The translations under genes were made by a program, and so were the position numbers. A stretch of DNA of 34,823 nucleotides. Source: a virus. Location of the stretch: the UHGV virus genome UHGV-0392850; one strand, written 5' to 3'. The notes under the pieces are model-generated. The model was not told the origin of the DNA and ran no database searches. It saw nothing but the letters and a program-made list of their open reading frames with translations. Shown here piece by piece: positions 2,003 through 13,376 of the stretch. Numbering within the stretch: the first letter of the stretch is position 1; every line of letters starts with the position of its first letter.

Positions 2003-2320
2003 CTACTGTAAATACCTCCGCATTAATATCTGGTTTGGATTCGACATCGCCCTGTTGAGCCGGCAACTGGTCCGCACCCAGCCCTCGTGAAACTCCATGT
2101 AATTTGCAATGTTTCCAAAGATATCCTTGACCGAAGCTTCCTGTTTCTTTGACTCAGGCAGCATATCATTGTCTTTTAAAAAGTTTTTAAACGTTTCAAT
2201 GCTCGCATCTATTCCGCTCTCTTCGCTTATTGCTGCATAGATGTTCTGGATCGTAAATCCATTTTCAATCATGTGTTGGATGGTCTTTATGTGCGGCTTA
2301 TATAGCTTTCTTTTATTCAT
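2003..2320 (-). CDS. hypothetical protein (possible DNA-binding)
   Basis: 105-aa ORF with a helix-rich N-terminus (KTIQHMIENGFTIQNIYAAISEESGID). Confidence 0.4.
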   Translation of the reverse strand: MNKRKLYKPHIKTIQHMIENGFTIQNIYAAISEESGIDASIETFKNFLKDNDMLPESKKQEASVKDIFGNIANYMEFHEGWVRTSCRLNRAMSNPNQILMRRYLQ

Positions 2321-2524
2321 TTAACCCTCTTCTTTCATTTTGTTGATAACCGGCGTCCACGTGATTGCCAAGTTTTTGCAGAAATTCAACATAGTATGAT
2401 CATCCCTGTACTTCTCAATAATCCCATCGACATCTGCATTGTATTGACTCATTGAGCCGGTACCCTTATAATTTTTATACGCTTTCCAGAACAAATTCTG
2501 GATATCTGTTATTTTTTCGTGCAT
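2321..2524 (-). CDS. hypothetical small protein
   Basis: 67-aa ORF abutting 2003..2320. Confidence 0.4.
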   Translation of the reverse strand: MHEKITDIQNLFWKAYKNYKGTGSMSQYNADVDGIIEKYRDDHTMLNFCKNLAITWTPVINKMKEEG

Positions 2525-2538
2525 ACACTACCCTCTTC

Positions 2539-2750
2539 GTAACAAAGCAACAAAATTTTTCTTCCGGTAACAAAAGTCTGTTACCCTATCAAACCCGCAT
2601 GGTTGACAGGTTTTTGAGGTTGGTAACAAAAGTAACAATGATTTTTACCCTATATAGGGACTTCATATTTTTGAATTTCTCACATTTTTATTCCGTATAT
2701 ATAGCGCGATTTCCTGTTGTTACTTTTGTTACTTGTTACCTTATCGTAAC
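2539..2750. repeat. iteron-like array of GTAACA/TGTTAC half-sites around an AT-rich stretch (putative replication origin or protein-binding array)
   Basis: GTAACAAAG at 2539-2547. Palindrome GGTAACAaaagtcTGTTACC at 2566-2585. Direct pair GGTAACAAAAGTAACAA at 2622-2638. Perfect palindrome CCCTATATAGGG at 2648-2659. AT-rich run at 2660-2700. Inverted copy GTTACTTTTGTTAC at 2719-2732, followed by TTGTTACC and CGTAAC. Confidence 0.5.
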
Positions 2751-2912
2751 TTTTCTGCCCCGATATTCCACTGAAATCACATCATTCGGCGACGAATTTT
2801 TGAATTTTTCCAGCACCTCATTTAATATTGCATTTATCGGAACTCCATTCCTGAACGCCATGCATTCAATAAAATCATAGTTTTCATCACTAATCCTCAC
2901 AATTTTTGACAT
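2736..2912 (-). CDS. small ribbon-helix-helix-like protein (58 aa); not in the ORF track
   Basis: Translation MSKIVRISDENYDFIECMAFRNGVPINAILNEVLEKFKNSSPNDVISVEYRGRKVTIR*. The beta-strand then two-helix pattern looks like an RHH fold. An AAGAGGAGG RBS lies 7 nt upstream of the ATG at 2910-2912. The 3' end overlaps the iteron array. Confidence 0.4.
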   Translation of the reverse strand: MSKIVRISDENYDFIECMAFRNGVPINAILNEVLEKFKNSSPNDVISVEYRGRKVTIR

Positions 2913-2926
2913 TGTATTTCCTCCTC

Positions 2927-4795
2927 TTAACTAAAAGGTAGCTTTTCTTGTGTTTCATCGATGCTTTCAAACCCATCATTATCCGTATTTCCTTTCGATT
3001 CAAGTTGCAAAAACACGCATCTCGCCGCTCTTCCGTCTATCTTTTTCAGCTTTGTTGGGTTTCCCCTGCTGTCCTGCTGAATAACGCCTTTCTTTGCAGC
3101 CCATGACAGGAAGGACTTTTTTGAGAATTTCCCAGATTCGCAGATTTCCTTAAATGCCTGTCCGTAAATTACTGCGTACCCATCTTCAATAATTCCCCAT
3201 TTTTCACAATTTGAAGACACATCAAATCTCTGGCTGTTCATTGCGATTTTATCAAGGATATATTGGTAGCATCGCTCATTGTCAGACAGCTCATTTCGGT
3301 CTATAAGCACCTGCTTCGCTTCGTCTATCGAAATATACTGCCCATCTTTAAAAATCAGATCTGTGGCTATTTTATCGGCTGTCAGGACGATGGAAAGCGA
3401 AATACTCTGCTTCTGCATCTTATCCGTGTTAAATAATTCCTTCTGAAACTCTTTCTGGATAGAACGAATTTCATCTTCTCCCATTTCTTTGATGATTTCC
3501 ACGAACTTCTTGCCCGCATGTCCGTAATTCCGTTTTACCGTTTCCGCTGTCTTCTGAGGATCCTGATAAATCTTTTCACCACACTCAACCTCCAGAATTC
3601 TGTTGATCGCACCGCCCTGACTGACATAGCTGCTAAGCGGTCTCTCACCATTACAGATCATTACGTTCCGCCACCGATTCTCTCGATTGATTCCGAGGTC
3701 TTTGTTTGACCGGCTCTTTCCTTTTCCTGAACACAGATCATAAACAATTCCCTCGAAGTTATCCCTGATTCTCGCTGATGTTTTGCTTGTATCATCCAGA
3801 AACATTGGTAAATTATTTAACATATCCGCTTTCGCTTCCAGTGCAACATCCGTTGTTTTGAAGTCTCCAATATATCTACTTTCGTCTGGATTCGCCCACA
3901 CGGAAGCTGCGACCATTAAAGATACCGTCTTTCCTCCCTCTGTCTCTCCCCACAGATCGACAAAAAATGGAAGTCCGCCCAAGACATGAACTAGTACACT
4001 TGCGAATGATGCGGCCAATAGGAATTTCACTTCCATTCTTCCAGCTGCCCTCAGTTCTCGAACGTGATTCAACCACACATCGAAACTTCCATGCTCCGAC
4101 ACGCTTTCAAAGGTCTGCTTAAATCGATTATCCCCGTCAAAAATGATGTCTGTATCATAGGGGATAAACTGATCCTTGATCCACCCAAGTTTACTAGTGG
4201 AATACTGCACGTCTATGTAGTCATCATTTCCGTTTTCTACGTCCGCCAGATATTTAACCAGCAATTTTGCATTTTCTGACGTAACTGCAATCCCTCTTCC
4301 GGATAATGCCACGATCTTATTCGCTGATGTGATCATCGTTTTTGGAACCACAATATCGTGCCACTGGTTATTTCGCCTGTACGACAGTTTTATTTGCTCT
4401 TCCCCGGTCTCTAAGTTTCGCAGCCGCTCTACTGGTAGGATTGGGTGATAGCAAGCCACTTCATCAACCCTTCCGGAATTCTGTGCGAACACGCCGCGAT
4501 CATCCGCAATCCAGGCGCCGCAATACATACGATCGTGAGGTCCTGTGAAATTCGTATAGTTATCTACTGTGCAAACAGTTCTGTTTTCCCGTTCCTGTCT
4601 CTTCATTTCTCGGTCAGCCTGATTGTATCCTTTCAAAATCTCTTCAAAATCCGACTTGGCGCCCAGCTGTTTCGCTCTTCTGATGAGCTGCACTTTTGTC
4701 TTTGATCGGAGAATCGGATCTTCCATTTCAAATAATTCGATGAAAACTTCATCATCCAGTATGCTGTCTACATCGAATTCGTTCATTTCCCTCAT
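2927..4795 (-). CDS. replication protein, P-loop NTPase (DUF927/VirE/D5-like primase-associated helicase)
   Basis: 622 aa. Walker A-like GETEGGKTVS and Walker B-like LPMFLDD. It follows the CHC2 zinc-finger gene with an ATGA overlap. It ends ...ETQEKLPFS. Confidence 0.55.
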   Translation of the reverse strand: MREMNEFDVDSILDDEVFIELFEMEDPILRSKTKVQLIRRAKQLGAKSDFEEILKGYNQADREMKRQERENRTVCTVDNYTNFTGPHDRMYCGAWIADDRGVFAQNSGRVDEVACYHPILPVERLRNLETGEEQIKLSYRRNNQWHDIVVPKTMITSANKIVALSGRGIAVTSENAKLLVKYLADVENGNDDYIDVQYSTSKLGWIKDQFIPYDTDIIFDGDNRFKQTFESVSEHGSFDVWLNHVRELRAAGRMEVKFLLAASFASVLVHVLGGLPFFVDLWGETEGGKTVSLMVAASVWANPDESRYIGDFKTTDVALEAKADMLNNLPMFLDDTSKTSARIRDNFEGIVYDLCSGKGKSRSNKDLGINRENRWRNVMICNGERPLSSYVSQGGAINRILEVECGEKIYQDPQKTAETVKRNYGHAGKKFVEIIKEMGEDEIRSIQKEFQKELFNTDKMQKQSISLSIVLTADKIATDLIFKDGQYISIDEAKQVLIDRNELSDNERCYQYILDKIAMNSQRFDVSSNCEKWGIIEDGYAVIYGQAFKEICESGKFSKKSFLSWAAKKGVIQQDSRGNPTKLKKIDGRAARCVFLQLESKGNTDNDGFESIDETQEKLPFS

Positions 4796-5283
4796 TTCCT
4801 CACCTCTTCTCTGTTTAATATTTCATGCAAATATAACTGGTACTGCAACGCATTGCAGCAATCGCACCATACCTCGCTGAACGGTTCTGATTTATTCATA
4901 TAATCGCGGTACACATCAATCAGAACATTATTCAGCTCTCTTTTTTTTCGAAGCTTTTCCTCTTCTCGCTTTCTCTGTTCTGCCTTCTTCTGGCTCCTAT
5001 ATATTGCCAATTTCGACTGGAATGTTGGCTTTTCATAGGTTCCACCGAGATTCTGAAACGCTTCTTTGAAATCAACATGATCAATCAGCTGCACGAATGT
5101 AAAGATATCTCCACTTGCTCCGCATCCGAAACAATGGAAGCTGTCTGGGTAGATTTTTAATGATGCTCCCTTGTCTCCCTTGTGGAACGGGCAGTGGATG
5201 AACCCTGCCCGATTTACATGGAACCCATATCTTTCCACAATTTCCCTCATGCTGTATGAATGTTTAATCTCTTCTCTATTCAT
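4792..5283 (-). CDS. DnaG-type primase CHC2 zinc-finger domain protein
   Basis: CPFHKGDKGASLKIYPDSFHCFGCGASGDIFTFV matches the CHC2 zinc-finger signature of bacterial and phage primases. Confidence 0.65.
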   Translation of the reverse strand: MNREEIKHSYSMREIVERYGFHVNRAGFIHCPFHKGDKGASLKIYPDSFHCFGCGASGDIFTFVQLIDHVDFKEAFQNLGGTYEKPTFQSKLAIYRSQKKAEQRKREEEKLRKKRELNNVLIDVYRDYMNKSEPFSEVWCDCCNALQYQLYLHEILNREEVRK

Positions 5284-5794
5284 GTCTTTCGCTCAATAAC
5301 TCAATAATTTTCTTTCCGGTATCATTCTTCTCACAGAATTCAAACCTCACGTTGTACCGGTCCCTAATCGTGCAAAGGGACTTGTATAGCTGATTCCCAT
5401 CGACTGCTTTAGAAGATGCTACATACCTCTCCTTCTTTTCGTTCACAGTGCGCCATCGTACTTCATGTTTTCTTGGATTTTTCCAAAAATACACATCCTC
5501 GATGCTTTTAATATCCTTCCCGTGCTCAATCAGTATGATCAACTGTATTCCTGCATCCATAGCCTTAAGCAGCTCCCTTTTAAATCTTTCGTGCTGCTGA
5601 CAGACATTTCCGCACAACTCTTGGAGATTTTGCTTTCTGTCGATTATGAGCCGGGGATTGTCCAAAGACATGTAATCCCCAACTAATAATTTGCTGGAAA
5701 AATGCTTAACTCCATTATCATCAAAAGTCTTCACGATCTTCCGAATCGCCCTTGCTTTTTCCCTGCTGTCAATCTGTATATCCATCTGTCTCAC
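5276..5794 (-). CDS. ERCC4-type (XPF/Mus81/Hef-like) nuclease domain protein; candidate branched-DNA endonuclease
   Basis: IDSREK ... LLVGDY ... IIDRKQNLQEL fits the ERCC4 motif pattern VDxRE...GDY...(E/D)RK..DL. 172 aa. Confidence 0.45.
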   Translation of the reverse strand: MRQMDIQIDSREKARAIRKIVKTFDDNGVKHFSSKLLVGDYMSLDNPRLIIDRKQNLQELCGNVCQQHERFKRELLKAMDAGIQLIILIEHGKDIKSIEDVYFWKNPRKHEVRWRTVNEKKERYVASSKAVDGNQLYKSLCTIRDRYNVRFEFCEKNDTGKKIIELLSERHE

Positions 5795-9348: not shown

Positions 9349-9576
9349 ATGAGACGTTGTAATTCGCCATTTAACGGCAATCGCTATGTGCTTAATAAAA
9401 ACACTGGTGAAATCCATGATTTAGACCGCGAAACCTCGTGCTGCCGCATAAATGATATAAAGTCCGAACATATCTTTAATTGCAGTTCCTATGAGGAAGC
9501 TGTTGTTTTTTCTTCCATGCTTGACATCAGAAGAAACGGATGCGCTCACTGCATGCCAGAGAAAAACAACGGATAA
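9349..9576 (+). CDS. small Cys-rich protein (75 aa); lone plus-strand gene in the early region (moron or regulator)
   Basis: An AAAGGAG RBS at 9335-9341 sits 7 nt before the ATG at 9349, so I prefer this start over the track start at 9319. Cysteines fall in CNSPF, SCCRIN and NGCAHCMPE. The gene has its own promoter. Confidence 0.45.
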   Translation: MRRCNSPFNGNRYVLNKNTGEIHDLDRETSCCRINDIKSEHIFNCSSYEEAVVFSSMLDIRRNGCAHCMPEKNNG

Positions 9577-9968
9577 CCATTAAGAGCTGCTTCTTTTAAA
9601 TGAGGTAGCTCTTTTTCAGGCATCTCCTCTTCAAGAAGTTCTGCAAATGCTTCAGGAGTTTTTTTGACTTCGATCAAGCCAAATACCATATTAGAAAACT
9701 CTTTCTCTCTAGTAATGGATTTCAATACATCGAATTTTTTTATCTTTCTATCCTTATTTTCTTCGTCAAGACCTATAAACTCATCGATATATTTTTCGAT
9801 ACGTTCAACCCCCTGAATTTCTTCGCGCAACTCTTCTGGTTGTTCAAGAATTTTTTTTGCAGTATTCCTGATTAAATTCTCCGTATTTTCCTTCTGAATT
9901 TTGATGTCATCTTCACACTTTTTGATGCGATACAGCAAGCAATCCCATGATCGTCTTGAAACCCACAT
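9546..9968 (-). CDS. early protein, first gene of the leftward (lytic/early) operon; function unknown
   Basis: An internal ATG at 9966-9968 is preceded by a GAGGTGA RBS (MWVSRRSWDCLLYRIKK...). The track start at 10061 is a TTG lying inside the promoter. Confidence 0.45.
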   Translation of the reverse strand: MWVSRRSWDCLLYRIKKCEDDIKIQKENTENLIRNTAKKILEQPEELREEIQGVERIEKYIDEFIGLDEENKDRKIKKFDVLKSITREKEFSNMVFGLIEVKKTPEAFAELLEEEMPEKELPHLKEAALNGYPLFFSGMQ

Positions 9969-10046
9969 CTTTCTCACCTCGCTTTCTTTTTCCCCGTCAT
10001 GCCGATAGGTCAGCGTTTTTTTTGTTTTGGTTTGTGTTGTTGCTTT

Positions 10047-10090
10047 CTTGTTGATGAACAAATCATAACTCGTTTTATTTTGTTTGTCAA
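10047..10090 (-). promoter_or_regulatory. leftward sigma70 promoter TTGACA-17-TATGAT plus operator CTTGTTgatgAACAA
   Basis: On the minus strand, TTGACA is the revcomp of 10085-10090, the spacer is 17 nt, and TATGAT is the revcomp of 10062-10067. The palindrome at 10047-10061 sits at about +1 to +15. Confidence 0.5.
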
Positions 10091-10119
10091 TAAGATTTTT
10101 AAAAAAATTAAATATTTTT

Positions 10120-10152
10120 CTTGTTGACTAACAAGTATAATAATGATATACT
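10120..10152 (+). promoter_or_regulatory. rightward sigma70 promoter TTGACT-17-TATACT with operator CTTGTTgactAACAAG over the -35
   Basis: -35 at 10124-10129 and -10 at 10147-10152. A perfect 6-4-6 palindrome occupies 10120-10135. A GGAGGA RBS and a TTG start at 10176 follow. Confidence 0.5.
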
Positions 10153-10175: not shown

Positions 10176-10559
10176 TTGGAATTAAATATAGGAGAAAGAA
10201 TTGAAATCTTAAGAAAAGACTTAAGTATGTCCAGGAGAGTTTTTGGAGAAAGGCTTGGCGTCAGTGAAAGCGTTATTGTTAATATAGAATACGATCGCTT
10301 GAAACGCCCAGATCAAAAAGAATCCTTATATAAGTTGATTTGTAAAGAGTTCAATGTGAACGAAGAATGGTTAAGAACCGGAAACGGTGAAATGTTTATC
10401 CAATTAACAAGAGACCAGTTGATTACAGACTTTGCTGCTGATCTTATAATGGAAAATGATACATTTAAAAAAAGATTAGTAGAAGCTCTTGCAAAGCTGG
10501 ATGAAAGTGAATGGGATGTCCTAGAAAAGCTCGCAGAGAGCTTAATTAAAAAAGACTAG
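10176..10559 (+). CDS. cI-like repressor, XRE-family HTH protein (127 aa) transcribed in the integrase direction
   Basis: N-terminal HTH IGERIEILRKDLSMSRRVFGERLGVSESVIVNIE plus a C-terminal helical domain. It is divergent from the early operon. The hairpin CTAGGGtttcCCCTAG at 10556-10571 includes the stop codon. Confidence 0.6.
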   Translation: MELNIGERIEILRKDLSMSRRVFGERLGVSESVIVNIEYDRLKRPDQKESLYKLICKEFNVNEEWLRTGNGEMFIQLTRDQLITDFAADLIMENDTFKKRLVEALAKLDESEWDVLEKLAESLIKKD

Positions 10560-11900: not shown

Positions 11901-13376
11901 ATGGAAACGCAATATGCTTTTGGATACGTCCGTGTATCCACTGGAAAGCAAGACGAATTATCCCCAGATTCCCAAGCAAAGCTGTTAAAAGATTACGCAA
12001 AGAGTCACGGGTATGTGGTGTCTAAGATTTTTTACGAGGTCGGGATTTCTGGAAGAAAAGCTGATAAGCGCCCGGAGTTCCAAAAAATGATTGGACTCGC
12101 AAAAGCATCAGATCATCCAGCAGATGCCATTCTTGTCTGGAAATATAGCCGATTTGCGAGAAACCAAGAAGAAAGTATCGTATACAAGTCTCTTCTCAAA
12201 AAGAAGCACAATGTGGATGTCATAAGCGTGTCAGAACCGTTGGTAGATGGCCCATTTGGCTCTCTGATAGAGCGAATCATCGAGTGGATGGACGAATATT
12301 ATTCCGTTCGTCTCTCCGGAGAAGTAACCAGAGGAATGAAGGAGAAGGCAGAAAGAGGTGGATACCAAGCACGCCCACCGCTCGGGTATAAGATCGTGAC
12401 TCATAAGGAACCTCCGGTAATCGTTCCCGAAGAAGCGGAAATTGTGAAACTGATTTTTGAAAAGTATGCGAACGAAAACTTAGGCATATTTGAAATTGCT
12501 AGGCTTTTAAATATGCATAATTTCAAAACCTCGCACGGGAAAGAATTTGAACGCCGATCTATCGAATATATCTTGCAGAATCCTACTTACTGCGGTATGA
12601 TACGTTGGAATCGGACAATCAATGAATCCAACGAAATCCGCCCGGAAAGCGAATGGATTGTCACCGATGGGGAACATCCTGCAATCATAAGCAAGGAGCT
12701 ATTCGATAAAGCACAGGAACGATACAAGAGAGAATACAGGCCACGTGGTTCGAGACCAGTAAGCACATACAAGCACTGGTTGTCTGGTGTCGTTAAGTGC
12801 CCAGCGTGCGGCAGGACAATGACTGCAAACACGATCAGAAATAACACAAGAGTGTACTCTCATTTTAGGTGCTATGGATACACAAAGGGGAAATGCATGG
12901 CGAACAACTCTATCAGCTCAATCAAGTTAGAACCTGCAGTACTGGAATCCATCAAAACTGTGCTTGATAGCGGTAAAATCACATACCGAAAGATTGAAGC
13001 CAAAACCGATGACACTGTGGACTTAAAAACCATACTGGAAGACCAGATCAAAAAGATCGATGTGAAACTGCAAAGAATCAAAGAAGCCTACATGAACGGG
13101 ATTGACACTATGGAAGAATACAAGGAAAATAAACAGGCTGTACAAGAAGAAAAACAACACCTTGAAAAACAACTGTCCGAAATCAAGGAAGAAAAAAGCA
13201 ACAGCAAAGATGATGACGAGGACATGCTGCTAAGGGTGAAAAATGTGTACGATATTCTCTCTTCCGACTCTGTTGATGCGACAACCAAGAATGATGTGCT
13301 CAGGAGTGTTGTAGAAAAAATCATCTACGAAAAGGATAAGGACTTGTTAAAGGTTTATTACTACTACATGCCGTAA
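11901..13376 (+). CDS. large serine recombinase (phage integrase, resolvase/invertase N-terminal catalytic domain)
   Basis: YAFGYVRVSTGKQDELSPDSQ contains the catalytic serine. A recombinase domain, Cys-containing zinc-ribbon region and coiled-coil C-terminus give 491 aa. An AAGGAG RBS is present. Confidence 0.85.
   Translation: METQYAFGYVRVSTGKQDELSPDSQAKLLKDYAKSHGYVVSKIFYEVGISGRKADKRPEFQKMIGLAKASDHPADAILVWKYSRFARNQEESIVYKSLLKKKHNVDVISVSEPLVDGPFGSLIERIIEWMDEYYSVRLSGEVTRGMKEKAERGGYQARPPLGYKIVTHKEPPVIVPEEAEIVKLIFEKYANENLGIFEIARLLNMHNFKTSHGKEFERRSIEYILQNPTYCGMIRWNRTINESNEIRPESEWIVTDGEHPAIISKELFDKAQERYKREYRPRGSRPVSTYKHWLSGVVKCPACGRTMTANTIRNNTRVYSHFRCYGYTKGKCMANNSISSIKLEPAVLESIKTVLDSGKITYRKIEAKTDDTVDLKTILEDQIKKIDVKLQRIKEAYMNGIDTMEEYKENKQAVQEEKQHLEKQLSEIKEEKSNSKDDDEDMLLRVKNVYDILSSDSVDATTKNDVLRSVVEKIIYEKDKDLLKVYYYYMP

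Follow-up and report, generated by a model that had tools for sequence, protein, structure and literature searches.

The viral genome UHGV-0392850, a stretch of 34,823 nucleotides (nt) referred to in its entirety as the window, comes from a temperate siphophage that infects Ruminococcus (Mediterraneibacter) gnavus and is close to the phages phiRg507T2_2/3 (MT980836/7) and RG-TP1 (PQ571303). The subject of this study is an array of short GTAACA repeats (iterons), located in a non-coding stretch of 210 base pairs (bp) (2525-2735), which is evaluated here as the replication origin of this phage. All the genes that surround the array are encoded on the minus strand. Followed in gene orientation, they are the gene for a 622-amino acid (aa) helicase (2927-4795), designated rep below; a gene for a protein of 58 aa (2736-2912), predicted to have a ribbon-helix-helix (RHH)-like fold, which intervenes between the helicase and the array and displaces the start of the iterons by 187 nt from the helicase gene; and, beyond the array, an open reading frame (ORF) of 67 aa and unassigned function (2321-2524), which is the first in a run of small genes.

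The array holds eight exact copies of the hexamer, starting at positions 2539, 2567, 2623 and 2632 on the plus strand and at 2579, 2718, 2727 and 2734 on the minus strand, together with a degenerate ninth unit, GCAACA (2547-2552). A first-pass annotation of the window had claimed at least six such motifs, along with direct repeats, a GGTAACA-N6-TGTTACC palindrome, a mirrored copy, and the palindrome CCCTATATAGGG, and all of these elements were located in the sequence. In gene orientation, the array begins with a Rep-proximal set of three direct GTAACA units on the minus strand (2734-2739, 2727-2732, and 2718-2723, with periods of 7 and 9 bp), which points toward an AT-rich centre. This centre is a spacer of 78 bp (2639-2716), presumed to be the DNA-unwinding region, within which CCCTATATAGGG (2648-2659) and TATATATA (2696-2703) are found. 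It is followed by a second set of two GTAACA units on the plus strand (2623-2628 and 2632-2637, period of 9 bp), inverted with respect to the first, and, after about 38 nt, by three to four more units. These form the distal cluster (2539-2585), which comprises GTAACA at 2539-2544, the degenerate unit, and the GGTAACA-N6-TGTTACC palindrome (2566-2585), and which ends about 10 nt ahead of the ribosome-binding site of the 67-aa gene. The two sets that flank the spacer also take part in a perfect 16-nt inverted repeat (2623-2638 and 2717-2732) that encloses 78 nt.

This concentration of hexamers is far from random, as 8 of the 23 GTAACA sites of the window fall within 216 bp, versus 0.094 expected (Poisson 1.3e-13, or about 5e-9 after position correction). 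The spacer has a GC content of 31%, compared to 42% for the window, and its poorest 45 bp, with 22% GC, rank in the lowest 0.5% of the window, in agreement with the AT-rich tract of about 45 bp that had been noticed before. In nearest-neighbour calculations over 50 bp, the spacer falls in the least stable 0.24% of the window. No second iteron cluster was found elsewhere in the window, and no DnaA boxes in the region 2401-2950.

The putative initiator helicase and the conserved module

The 622-aa helicase shows significant matches to two Pfam domains, DUF927 (1.1e-40) and HTH_56 ('Cch helix turn helix domain'; 6.6e-19, residues 506-600), and to PHROG 8841 (4e-198). Among the proteins of the PDB, it matches by sequence 8tch, the replication initiator-helicase Rep of the staphylococcal pathogenicity island (SaPI) SaPIbov1 (9.5e-32), and 5dgk, the helicase Cch of the staphylococcal cassette chromosome mec (SCCmec) (4.4e-10). 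An AlphaFold2 (AF2) model of its C-terminal domain (residues 485-622) contains a helix (559-569), a loop (573-580, QQDSRGNP), and a beta hairpin (581-597). The top match of this model in Foldseek is again 8tch (E 9e-4, probability 1.0), with about 15% identity in the fold alignment, and the second one is the winged helix of TcpK bound to oriT DNA.

Origins of the SaPI type consist of 6-12 penta- or hexanucleotide iterons placed directly downstream of rep around an AT-rich centre, with two or more on either side in opposite orientations (PMC9371898, PMC7581432). In these elements, the C-terminal winged helix of Rep recognises the iterons, and the protein is self-loading, probably as two hexamers (PMC9371898, PMC7581432); for SaPIbov1 Rep and its ori, the work of Ubeda et al. 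(2007, 2012) is cited here from the summary in PMC9371898. The window follows this design. Its initiator is a DUF927 self-loading helicase by homology, with a C-terminal winged helix for which SaPIbov1 Rep is the best match in both sequence and fold. The array lies downstream of rep, its eight exact hexamers plus one degenerate unit fall within the range of 6-12, and three minus-strand and two plus-strand units flank the 78 bp of 31% GC. Moreover, a primase-like gene, a possible counterpart of the one in the SaPIs, is located just upstream of the helicase, and, as in the SaPIs, Rep-ori specificities vary between related elements.

Judged by its sequence and by this resemblance, the region 2539-2740 is very probably a phage replication origin of the SaPI/SCCmec-Cch type. 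An origin made of iterons and an AT-rich unwinding stretch next to its helicase was the central proposal of the first-pass annotation, and it is strongly backed both by the homology described above and by about 130 related loci. In the mechanism proposed here, the 622-aa DUF927 helicase would be initiator and replicative helicase in one, with its C-terminal winged helix reading the 6-7-bp iterons (G)GTAACA. The protein would assemble, probably into two hexamers as has been suggested for SaPI Rep, on the opposed iteron sets around the spacer, melt its 78 bp of AT-rich DNA, and load itself; binding, melting, and origin firing would all take place at the array. Priming and extension would then be carried out by host enzymes together with a 163-aa CHC2 zinc-ribbon protein (4792-5283, minus strand), whose gene overlaps the start of the helicase gene. 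This protein matches the Pfam family Zn_ribbon_DnaG (1e-14) as well as primase families in PHROG, it is annotated as 'DNA primase' in relatives, and it is the probable priming partner of the helicase.

The related loci comprise 47 viral contigs from IMG/VR, with helicases 62-99% identical to that of the window; 80 prophage loci, one per genome of Lachnospiraceae or other Clostridia, with helicases 54-80% identical; and five loci reached via homologs of the 58-aa protein. Of the fetched loci, 27 were left out of the analysis, either for being missed by a simple C-terminus finder or for the contig having ended. Among about 60 non-redundant loci (helicases 54-99% identical), roughly 55 keep the architecture just after the stop codon of the helicase. 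It consists of two to three direct units with a 7-9-bp period, a spacer of 77-109 bp with 16-38% GC and CTATATA-like elements near both ends, two inverted units, and usually a distal cluster 45-60 nt further. No clear repeat family was recognised by the automated map in the remaining loci, about 5 of the 60. In relatives devoid of the 58-aa ORF, the iterons mostly begin no more than about 25 nt from the helicase stop, with a subset in which this distance is 46-80 nt.

The hexamer itself varies by lineage. Apart from the GTAACA of the window group, the forms GTTACA, GTTACC, GTAACC, TTACAC, and (G)TAACAC(C) are found, and within any one locus all iteron sets carry the hexamer of that lineage, so that the sets change together. 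By contrast, the long inverted repeat is not conserved: in many relatives the longest perfect inverted repeat spans only 7-11 nt, that is, a single unit, because the spacing of the units differs between the two arms. What has been conserved is hence a short unit in a given arrangement, and not a stem. Regarding the spacer, CTATATA(GG)-like elements lie about 10 nt inside each iteron set, at 2648-2659 and 2696-2703 in the window, and are kept across lineages with differing iterons (modules L012-L131); they may be the first melting sites or a site for a host factor.

Co-variation of iterons and helicase loop

A small part of the helicase changes along with the iterons. The helicases of loci L013/L014 and L017/L044 are 96-100% identical to that of the window over residues 1-500, compared to 58-68% over residues 501-622, which correspond to positions 2930-3295 of the window. 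The iterons of these loci are GTTACA (L013/L014) and GGTTACC (L017/L044), versus GTAACA in the window. To judge from these alignments, replication specificity is exchanged between near-identical phages as one small cassette, formed by the C-terminal domain and the iterons. Locus L015 narrows the region further, as it is a mosaic in which the first half of the C-terminal domain resembles that of the L013 group, residues ~565-597 resemble the helicase of the window, and the iterons are GTAACA.

The same region stands out in a pairwise test of 50 loci (1225 pairs), in which the identity of different helicase segments was used as predictor of a shared iteron type. Residues 561-598 reached an area under the curve (AUC) of 0.83, a pairwise value that ignores phylogeny, while the AUC of the other segments was 0.62 (residues 1-250), 0.65 (251-500), 0.67 (501-560), and 0.60 (599-622). 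The codons for residues 599-622 lie between the loop and the iterons, and the low AUC of this segment, despite its being nearer to the iterons, argues against plain physical linkage. Residues 561-598 (codons 3002-3115, minus strand), the putative determinant of iteron specificity, run in the AF2 model from the end of the recognition helix through the QQDSRGNP loop, to which N579 belongs, into the first strands of the beta hairpin.

Within this loop, a single residue follows the last base of the iteron. The residue aligned with N579 is Gln in 9 of 10 GTTACA loci and Arg in all nine GTTACC loci, while Asn is found at 579 in those GTAACA loci whose loop is of the DS[RK]GNP form, and Arg or Lys in GTAACC loci. 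The rule that emerges is that Asn or Gln goes with A at position 6 of the iteron, and Arg or Lys with C. The Gln/Arg switch is observed on at least three to four matched backgrounds (L013/L017, L054/L098, L099/L056, and L097/L053), and two loci that had been reached in another way bore out the prediction of the rule: L132 (GQVTK, with GTTACA) and L133 (RRLTK, with GTTACC). An amide side chain opposite A and an Arg or Lys opposite a G:C pair are consistent with common protein-DNA contacts. It is inferred from this that N579 and its Gln, Arg, or Lys equivalents would contact the base directly, and that the C-terminal winged helix of the helicase would be the domain that reads the iterons.

Several points weigh against this interpretation of the locus, besides the neglect of phylogeny by the pairwise AUC. 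Co-transfer alone can yield co-variation of adjacent DNA, an objection that the control with residues 599-622 only weakens. The iterons of the window, separated from rep by the 58-aa gene, are not directly downstream of it. The NCBIfam model for Cch1 matches the helicase with 44.5 bits, far under its cutoff of 700 bits, which makes this protein a relative and not an ortholog of Cch. Finally, no catalytic primase domain was recognised in the 163-aa protein by Pfam or PHROG.

The 58-aa protein and other readings of the array

The 58-aa ORF was described in the first-pass annotation as uncalled. The ORF is present as described, with a strong ribosome-binding site (GAGGAGG), but it had already been annotated in relatives, as a 'DNA binding regulatory protein' in MT980836 (gp43) and as an 'Arc-like repressor' in PQ571303 (gp2). 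Its TAA stop codon falls inside the first iteron. The ratio of nonsynonymous to synonymous substitutions (dN/dS) against its 76%-identical homolog from L050 is 0.08. The strong ribosome-binding site, this ratio, and the annotation in relatives indicate that the ORF is a real gene under strong purifying selection.

The proposal of an RHH fold for this protein fared less evenly. The AF2 model (mean predicted local distance difference test score of 75, from a shallow alignment) shows the expected beta-alpha-alpha layout, with a beta strand at residues 2-6 and helices at 9-22 and 26-40, followed by an extra hairpin at 45-57. Matches to known RHH families, on the other hand, are weak: the top Foldseek matches of the model are CopG and Arc, with non-significant E values of 0.6-2, the PHROG 'Arc-like repressor' is matched at E 0.016, a profile of the family finds the omega repressor at E 0.66, and neither the protein nor the family has a meaningful match in Pfam or NCBIfam. 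As modelled, an RHH fold is probable, with weak support from these comparisons. Compared to CopG (pMV158), omega (pSM19035), and Arc, the protein shares the small size and the predicted beta-alpha-alpha core, and its gene adjoins a replication gene as that of CopG does, but downstream and not upstream of rep; it also differs from all three in the extra C-terminal beta hairpin and in the absence of a significant sequence match. The best PDB match of the family profile is to the N-terminal 45 residues of 9wa8, annotated as 'Anti-CRISPR protein' (E 0.0024); this match is too weak for an anti-CRISPR role to be assigned and probably reflects a common RHH-like DNA-binding module.

The family is tiny, as large database searches returned four and seven matches, from which two long repetitive proteins (P0068 and P0072) were set aside as spurious. 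The diverged homologs of the 58-aa protein are in every case encoded in the slot that separates the gene of a DUF927+HTH_56 helicase from the iterons: in L050 (4001-4177; 76% identity), L132 (3001-3183; 53%), and L133 (3001-3180; 40%), next to iterons of the types GTAACA, GTTACA, and GTTACC, respectively, and in L134 (927-1106). The occupation of the same slot in diverged lineages indicates that the gene is no random insertion. In L133 and L134, the stop codon of this gene is directly followed by an additional palindrome, GGTTACCATGGTGGGTAACC.

The 58-aa product could itself be the main binder of the GTAACA repeats, which would then represent an operator, an origin-control site, or a heptad array of the omega/CopG kind, and the first-pass annotation had likewise considered it as the repeat binder. 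Arrays of 7-bp repeats, both direct and inverted, are the binding sites of omega-type proteins. This knowledge, the beta-alpha-alpha prediction with CopG, Arc, and omega as the best though non-significant matches, and the position of the gene, which abuts the first iteron and whose homologs hold the same slot at 76, 53, and 40% identity, speak in favour of such a role. However, about 100 related loci have the full iteron module and lack the gene; in one of them, L012, the helicase is 96% identical to that of the window and the module comes directly after the helicase stop. This distribution implies that the 58-aa protein is not what the repeats exist for. In addition, the iteron type follows the helicase loop (within residues 561-598) and not the presence of the 58-aa gene, and the beta strand of the family is nearly constant, SK[IV][VI][RK]IS, across GTAACA, GTTACA, and GTTACC loci. 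A 58-aa protein acting as the main reader of the array is hence unlikely, although it may have a secondary, competing role in iteron binding. As far as can be read from its distribution, it may be an optional accessory of the replicon, perhaps a regulator, which may adjust the copy number or the firing of the origin, for instance as a competitor or a helper of the helicase on the iterons. As a candidate operator for this protein, the 15-nt direct repeat ATTTTTGAATTT(C/T)TC (2667-2681 and 2796-2810) was considered and treated as a chance occurrence, because on inspection it is not conserved in L050 and its spacer copy is present in L012, which lacks the gene.

The array might alternatively serve as promoter or operator for the small-gene operon downstream of it (2524 and below, minus strand), instead of being an origin. 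About 10 nt separate its last repeats from the ribosome-binding site of the 67-aa gene, and its intergenic position between two blocks of genes is typical of promoters. A promoter scan, however, detected no sigma-70-like promoter on the gene strand in 2525-2735, no promoter is positionally conserved across 28 diverse related modules, and there is no terminator between the array and the helicase operon, while both the architecture and the protein homology suit an origin. This alternative is thus highly improbable, and the lack of a positionally conserved promoter in the module also speaks against the autoregulated operator suggested in the first-pass annotation. An origin at this place may, even so, modulate read-through.

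The only strong promoter in the scan is a near-consensus sigma-70 sequence, TTGACT-17-TATAAT (11/12), at 2444-2472 on the plus strand. It lies inside the 67-aa gene, in antisense orientation, and is aimed at the iteron module. It is kept in L012, L013, and L017, and absent in other lineages; L015, where the encoded protein differs, has the version TTGATT-16-TATAAT. This promoter could drive transcription into the origin or be due to chance.

The two weakest alternatives can be dealt with briefly. A reading of the inverted repeats as the arms of an RNA or cruciform stem, and not as protein-binding iterons, is suggested by the perfect 16-nt inverted repeat with its 78-nt loop and by left and right arms that change together between lineages, but it is scarcely credible given the reduction of the perfect repeat to a single unit in many relatives, the co-variation of the distal cluster and of the direct repeats within each arm, which a stem leaves unexplained, and the lack of any match in an Rfam scan of 2200-3200 with E values up to 1. 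Small RHH proteins such as the centromere binders of the ParG and omega types bind repeat arrays, and a partition (centromere-like) site with an RHH centromere-binding protein had accordingly been listed among the initial options, but it can be virtually discarded: the large serine integrase (11901-13376) marks a phage that integrates, most relatives carry the array without the RHH gene, the neighbours of the array are the helicase and the 67-aa protein, with no adjacent ParA/ParM-type NTPase, and no ParA/ParM ATPase was found among the lysogeny- and replication-side ORFs scanned or among the gene names in those annotated parts of relatives that were examined.

Known replicons, significance, and neighbouring genes

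Despite its similarities to the SaPI origins, the origin proposed at 2539-2740 exhibits clear differences. The element that hosts it is a complete temperate siphophage of gut Lachnospiraceae and not a phage satellite. The similarity between the helicases is distant (E 1e-31, with C-terminal domains about 15% identical), and of the primase partner only a CHC2 zinc ribbon is left. Furthermore, the lineage of the window carries the 58-aa RHH-like gene between rep and ori, an arrangement not described for SaPIs, and a third, distal iteron cluster is regular among its phage relatives.

The Cch helicases of SCCmec, reportedly described by Mir-Sanchis in 2016, share with that of the window the same Pfam domains, DUF927 and HTH_56. 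The related Cch2 binds specifically to repeats located downstream of the helicase gene (Bebel 2020, PMC7581432). Its site, nevertheless, holds only three 5-nt direct repeats (PMC7581432), and the context in the window is that of a phage and not of a cassette chromosome, with the Cch1 equivalog far below its cutoff.

Other replicons offer more superficial parallels. In phage P4, the alpha protein is a primase-helicase that acts on a bipartite origin (ori plus crr) with type I iterons (TGTTCACC). Like the protein of the window, it joins C-terminal origin recognition with helicase activity in a single polypeptide, and the short iterons look alike (TGTTACC here), but alpha belongs to another helicase family and the window has no second cluster corresponding to a bipartite origin. 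Sfi21-type phages of Streptococcus thermophilus and lactococcal phages have origins downstream of a putative primase/helicase gene, and they resemble the window, in general terms, as Firmicutes siphophages with a non-coding, repeat-rich origin right after the replication gene. The classical iteron origin of theta plasmids and phage lambda (RepA, pi, lambda O), for which iterons of 17-22 bp, a non-helicase initiator, and usually DnaA boxes and the loading of host DnaB are expected, was also considered and rejected, because the units found here measure 6-7 bp with a 7-9-bp period, no DnaA box is present in 2401-2950, and the adjacent initiator is itself a helicase.

The mechanism class to which this origin is assigned is already known, and nothing about that class is changed by the finding: the element is of an ordinary kind, if well supported, and is distinguished by an unusually clean natural specificity series and by an optional small accessory gene. 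Its value lies in locating a probable, so far unannotated origin for temperate phages of R. gnavus and other gut Lachnospiraceae; the text of the published R. gnavus phage papers searched makes no mention of an origin or of iterons. It would also widen the range of the replicon with a self-loading helicase of the SaPI/SCCmec kind, beyond staphylococcal satellites, to full phages of gut anaerobes. With a size of about 2.7 kb, the rep-ori cassette is compact and could be a starting point for vectors in hosts for which genetic tools are scarce. In turn, the specificity series, with at least six iteron types and distinct helicase loops, and with near-isogenic helicases that differ in the C-terminal domain only, is usable for probing how winged helices read DNA and for asking whether swaps of origin specificity spare co-resident prophages from cross-talk. 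If true, the loop-residue code would explain how phages diversify their replication specificity by cassette swap. Two bolder statements, that the 58-aa protein is an undescribed optional control factor of SaPI-type replicons and, separately, that the loop residue constitutes a simple, re-programmable recognition code, are possible but rather doubtful.

With regard to the wider neighbourhood, an ERCC4 nuclease (5276-5794, minus strand) is encoded upstream of the CHC2 zinc-ribbon gene. Apart from the serine integrase, the phage codes for an AAA_24 protein, repressors of the Cro/CI type, and a Rha/KilAC antirepressor. Nowhere in the window is a 50-bp stretch of DNA less stable than within 10051-10150, a divergent intergenic region flanked by a gene on the minus strand (9546-10061) and by a helix-turn-helix gene on the plus strand (10176-10559), which is probably the lysis/lysogeny switch. 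Two tRNA genes are present on the minus strand, tRNA-Ile (anticodon TAT; 33303-33376) and tRNA-Ala (CGC; 33569-33641), while in phiRg507T2_2 the corresponding site holds tRNA-Asn and tRNA-Ala.

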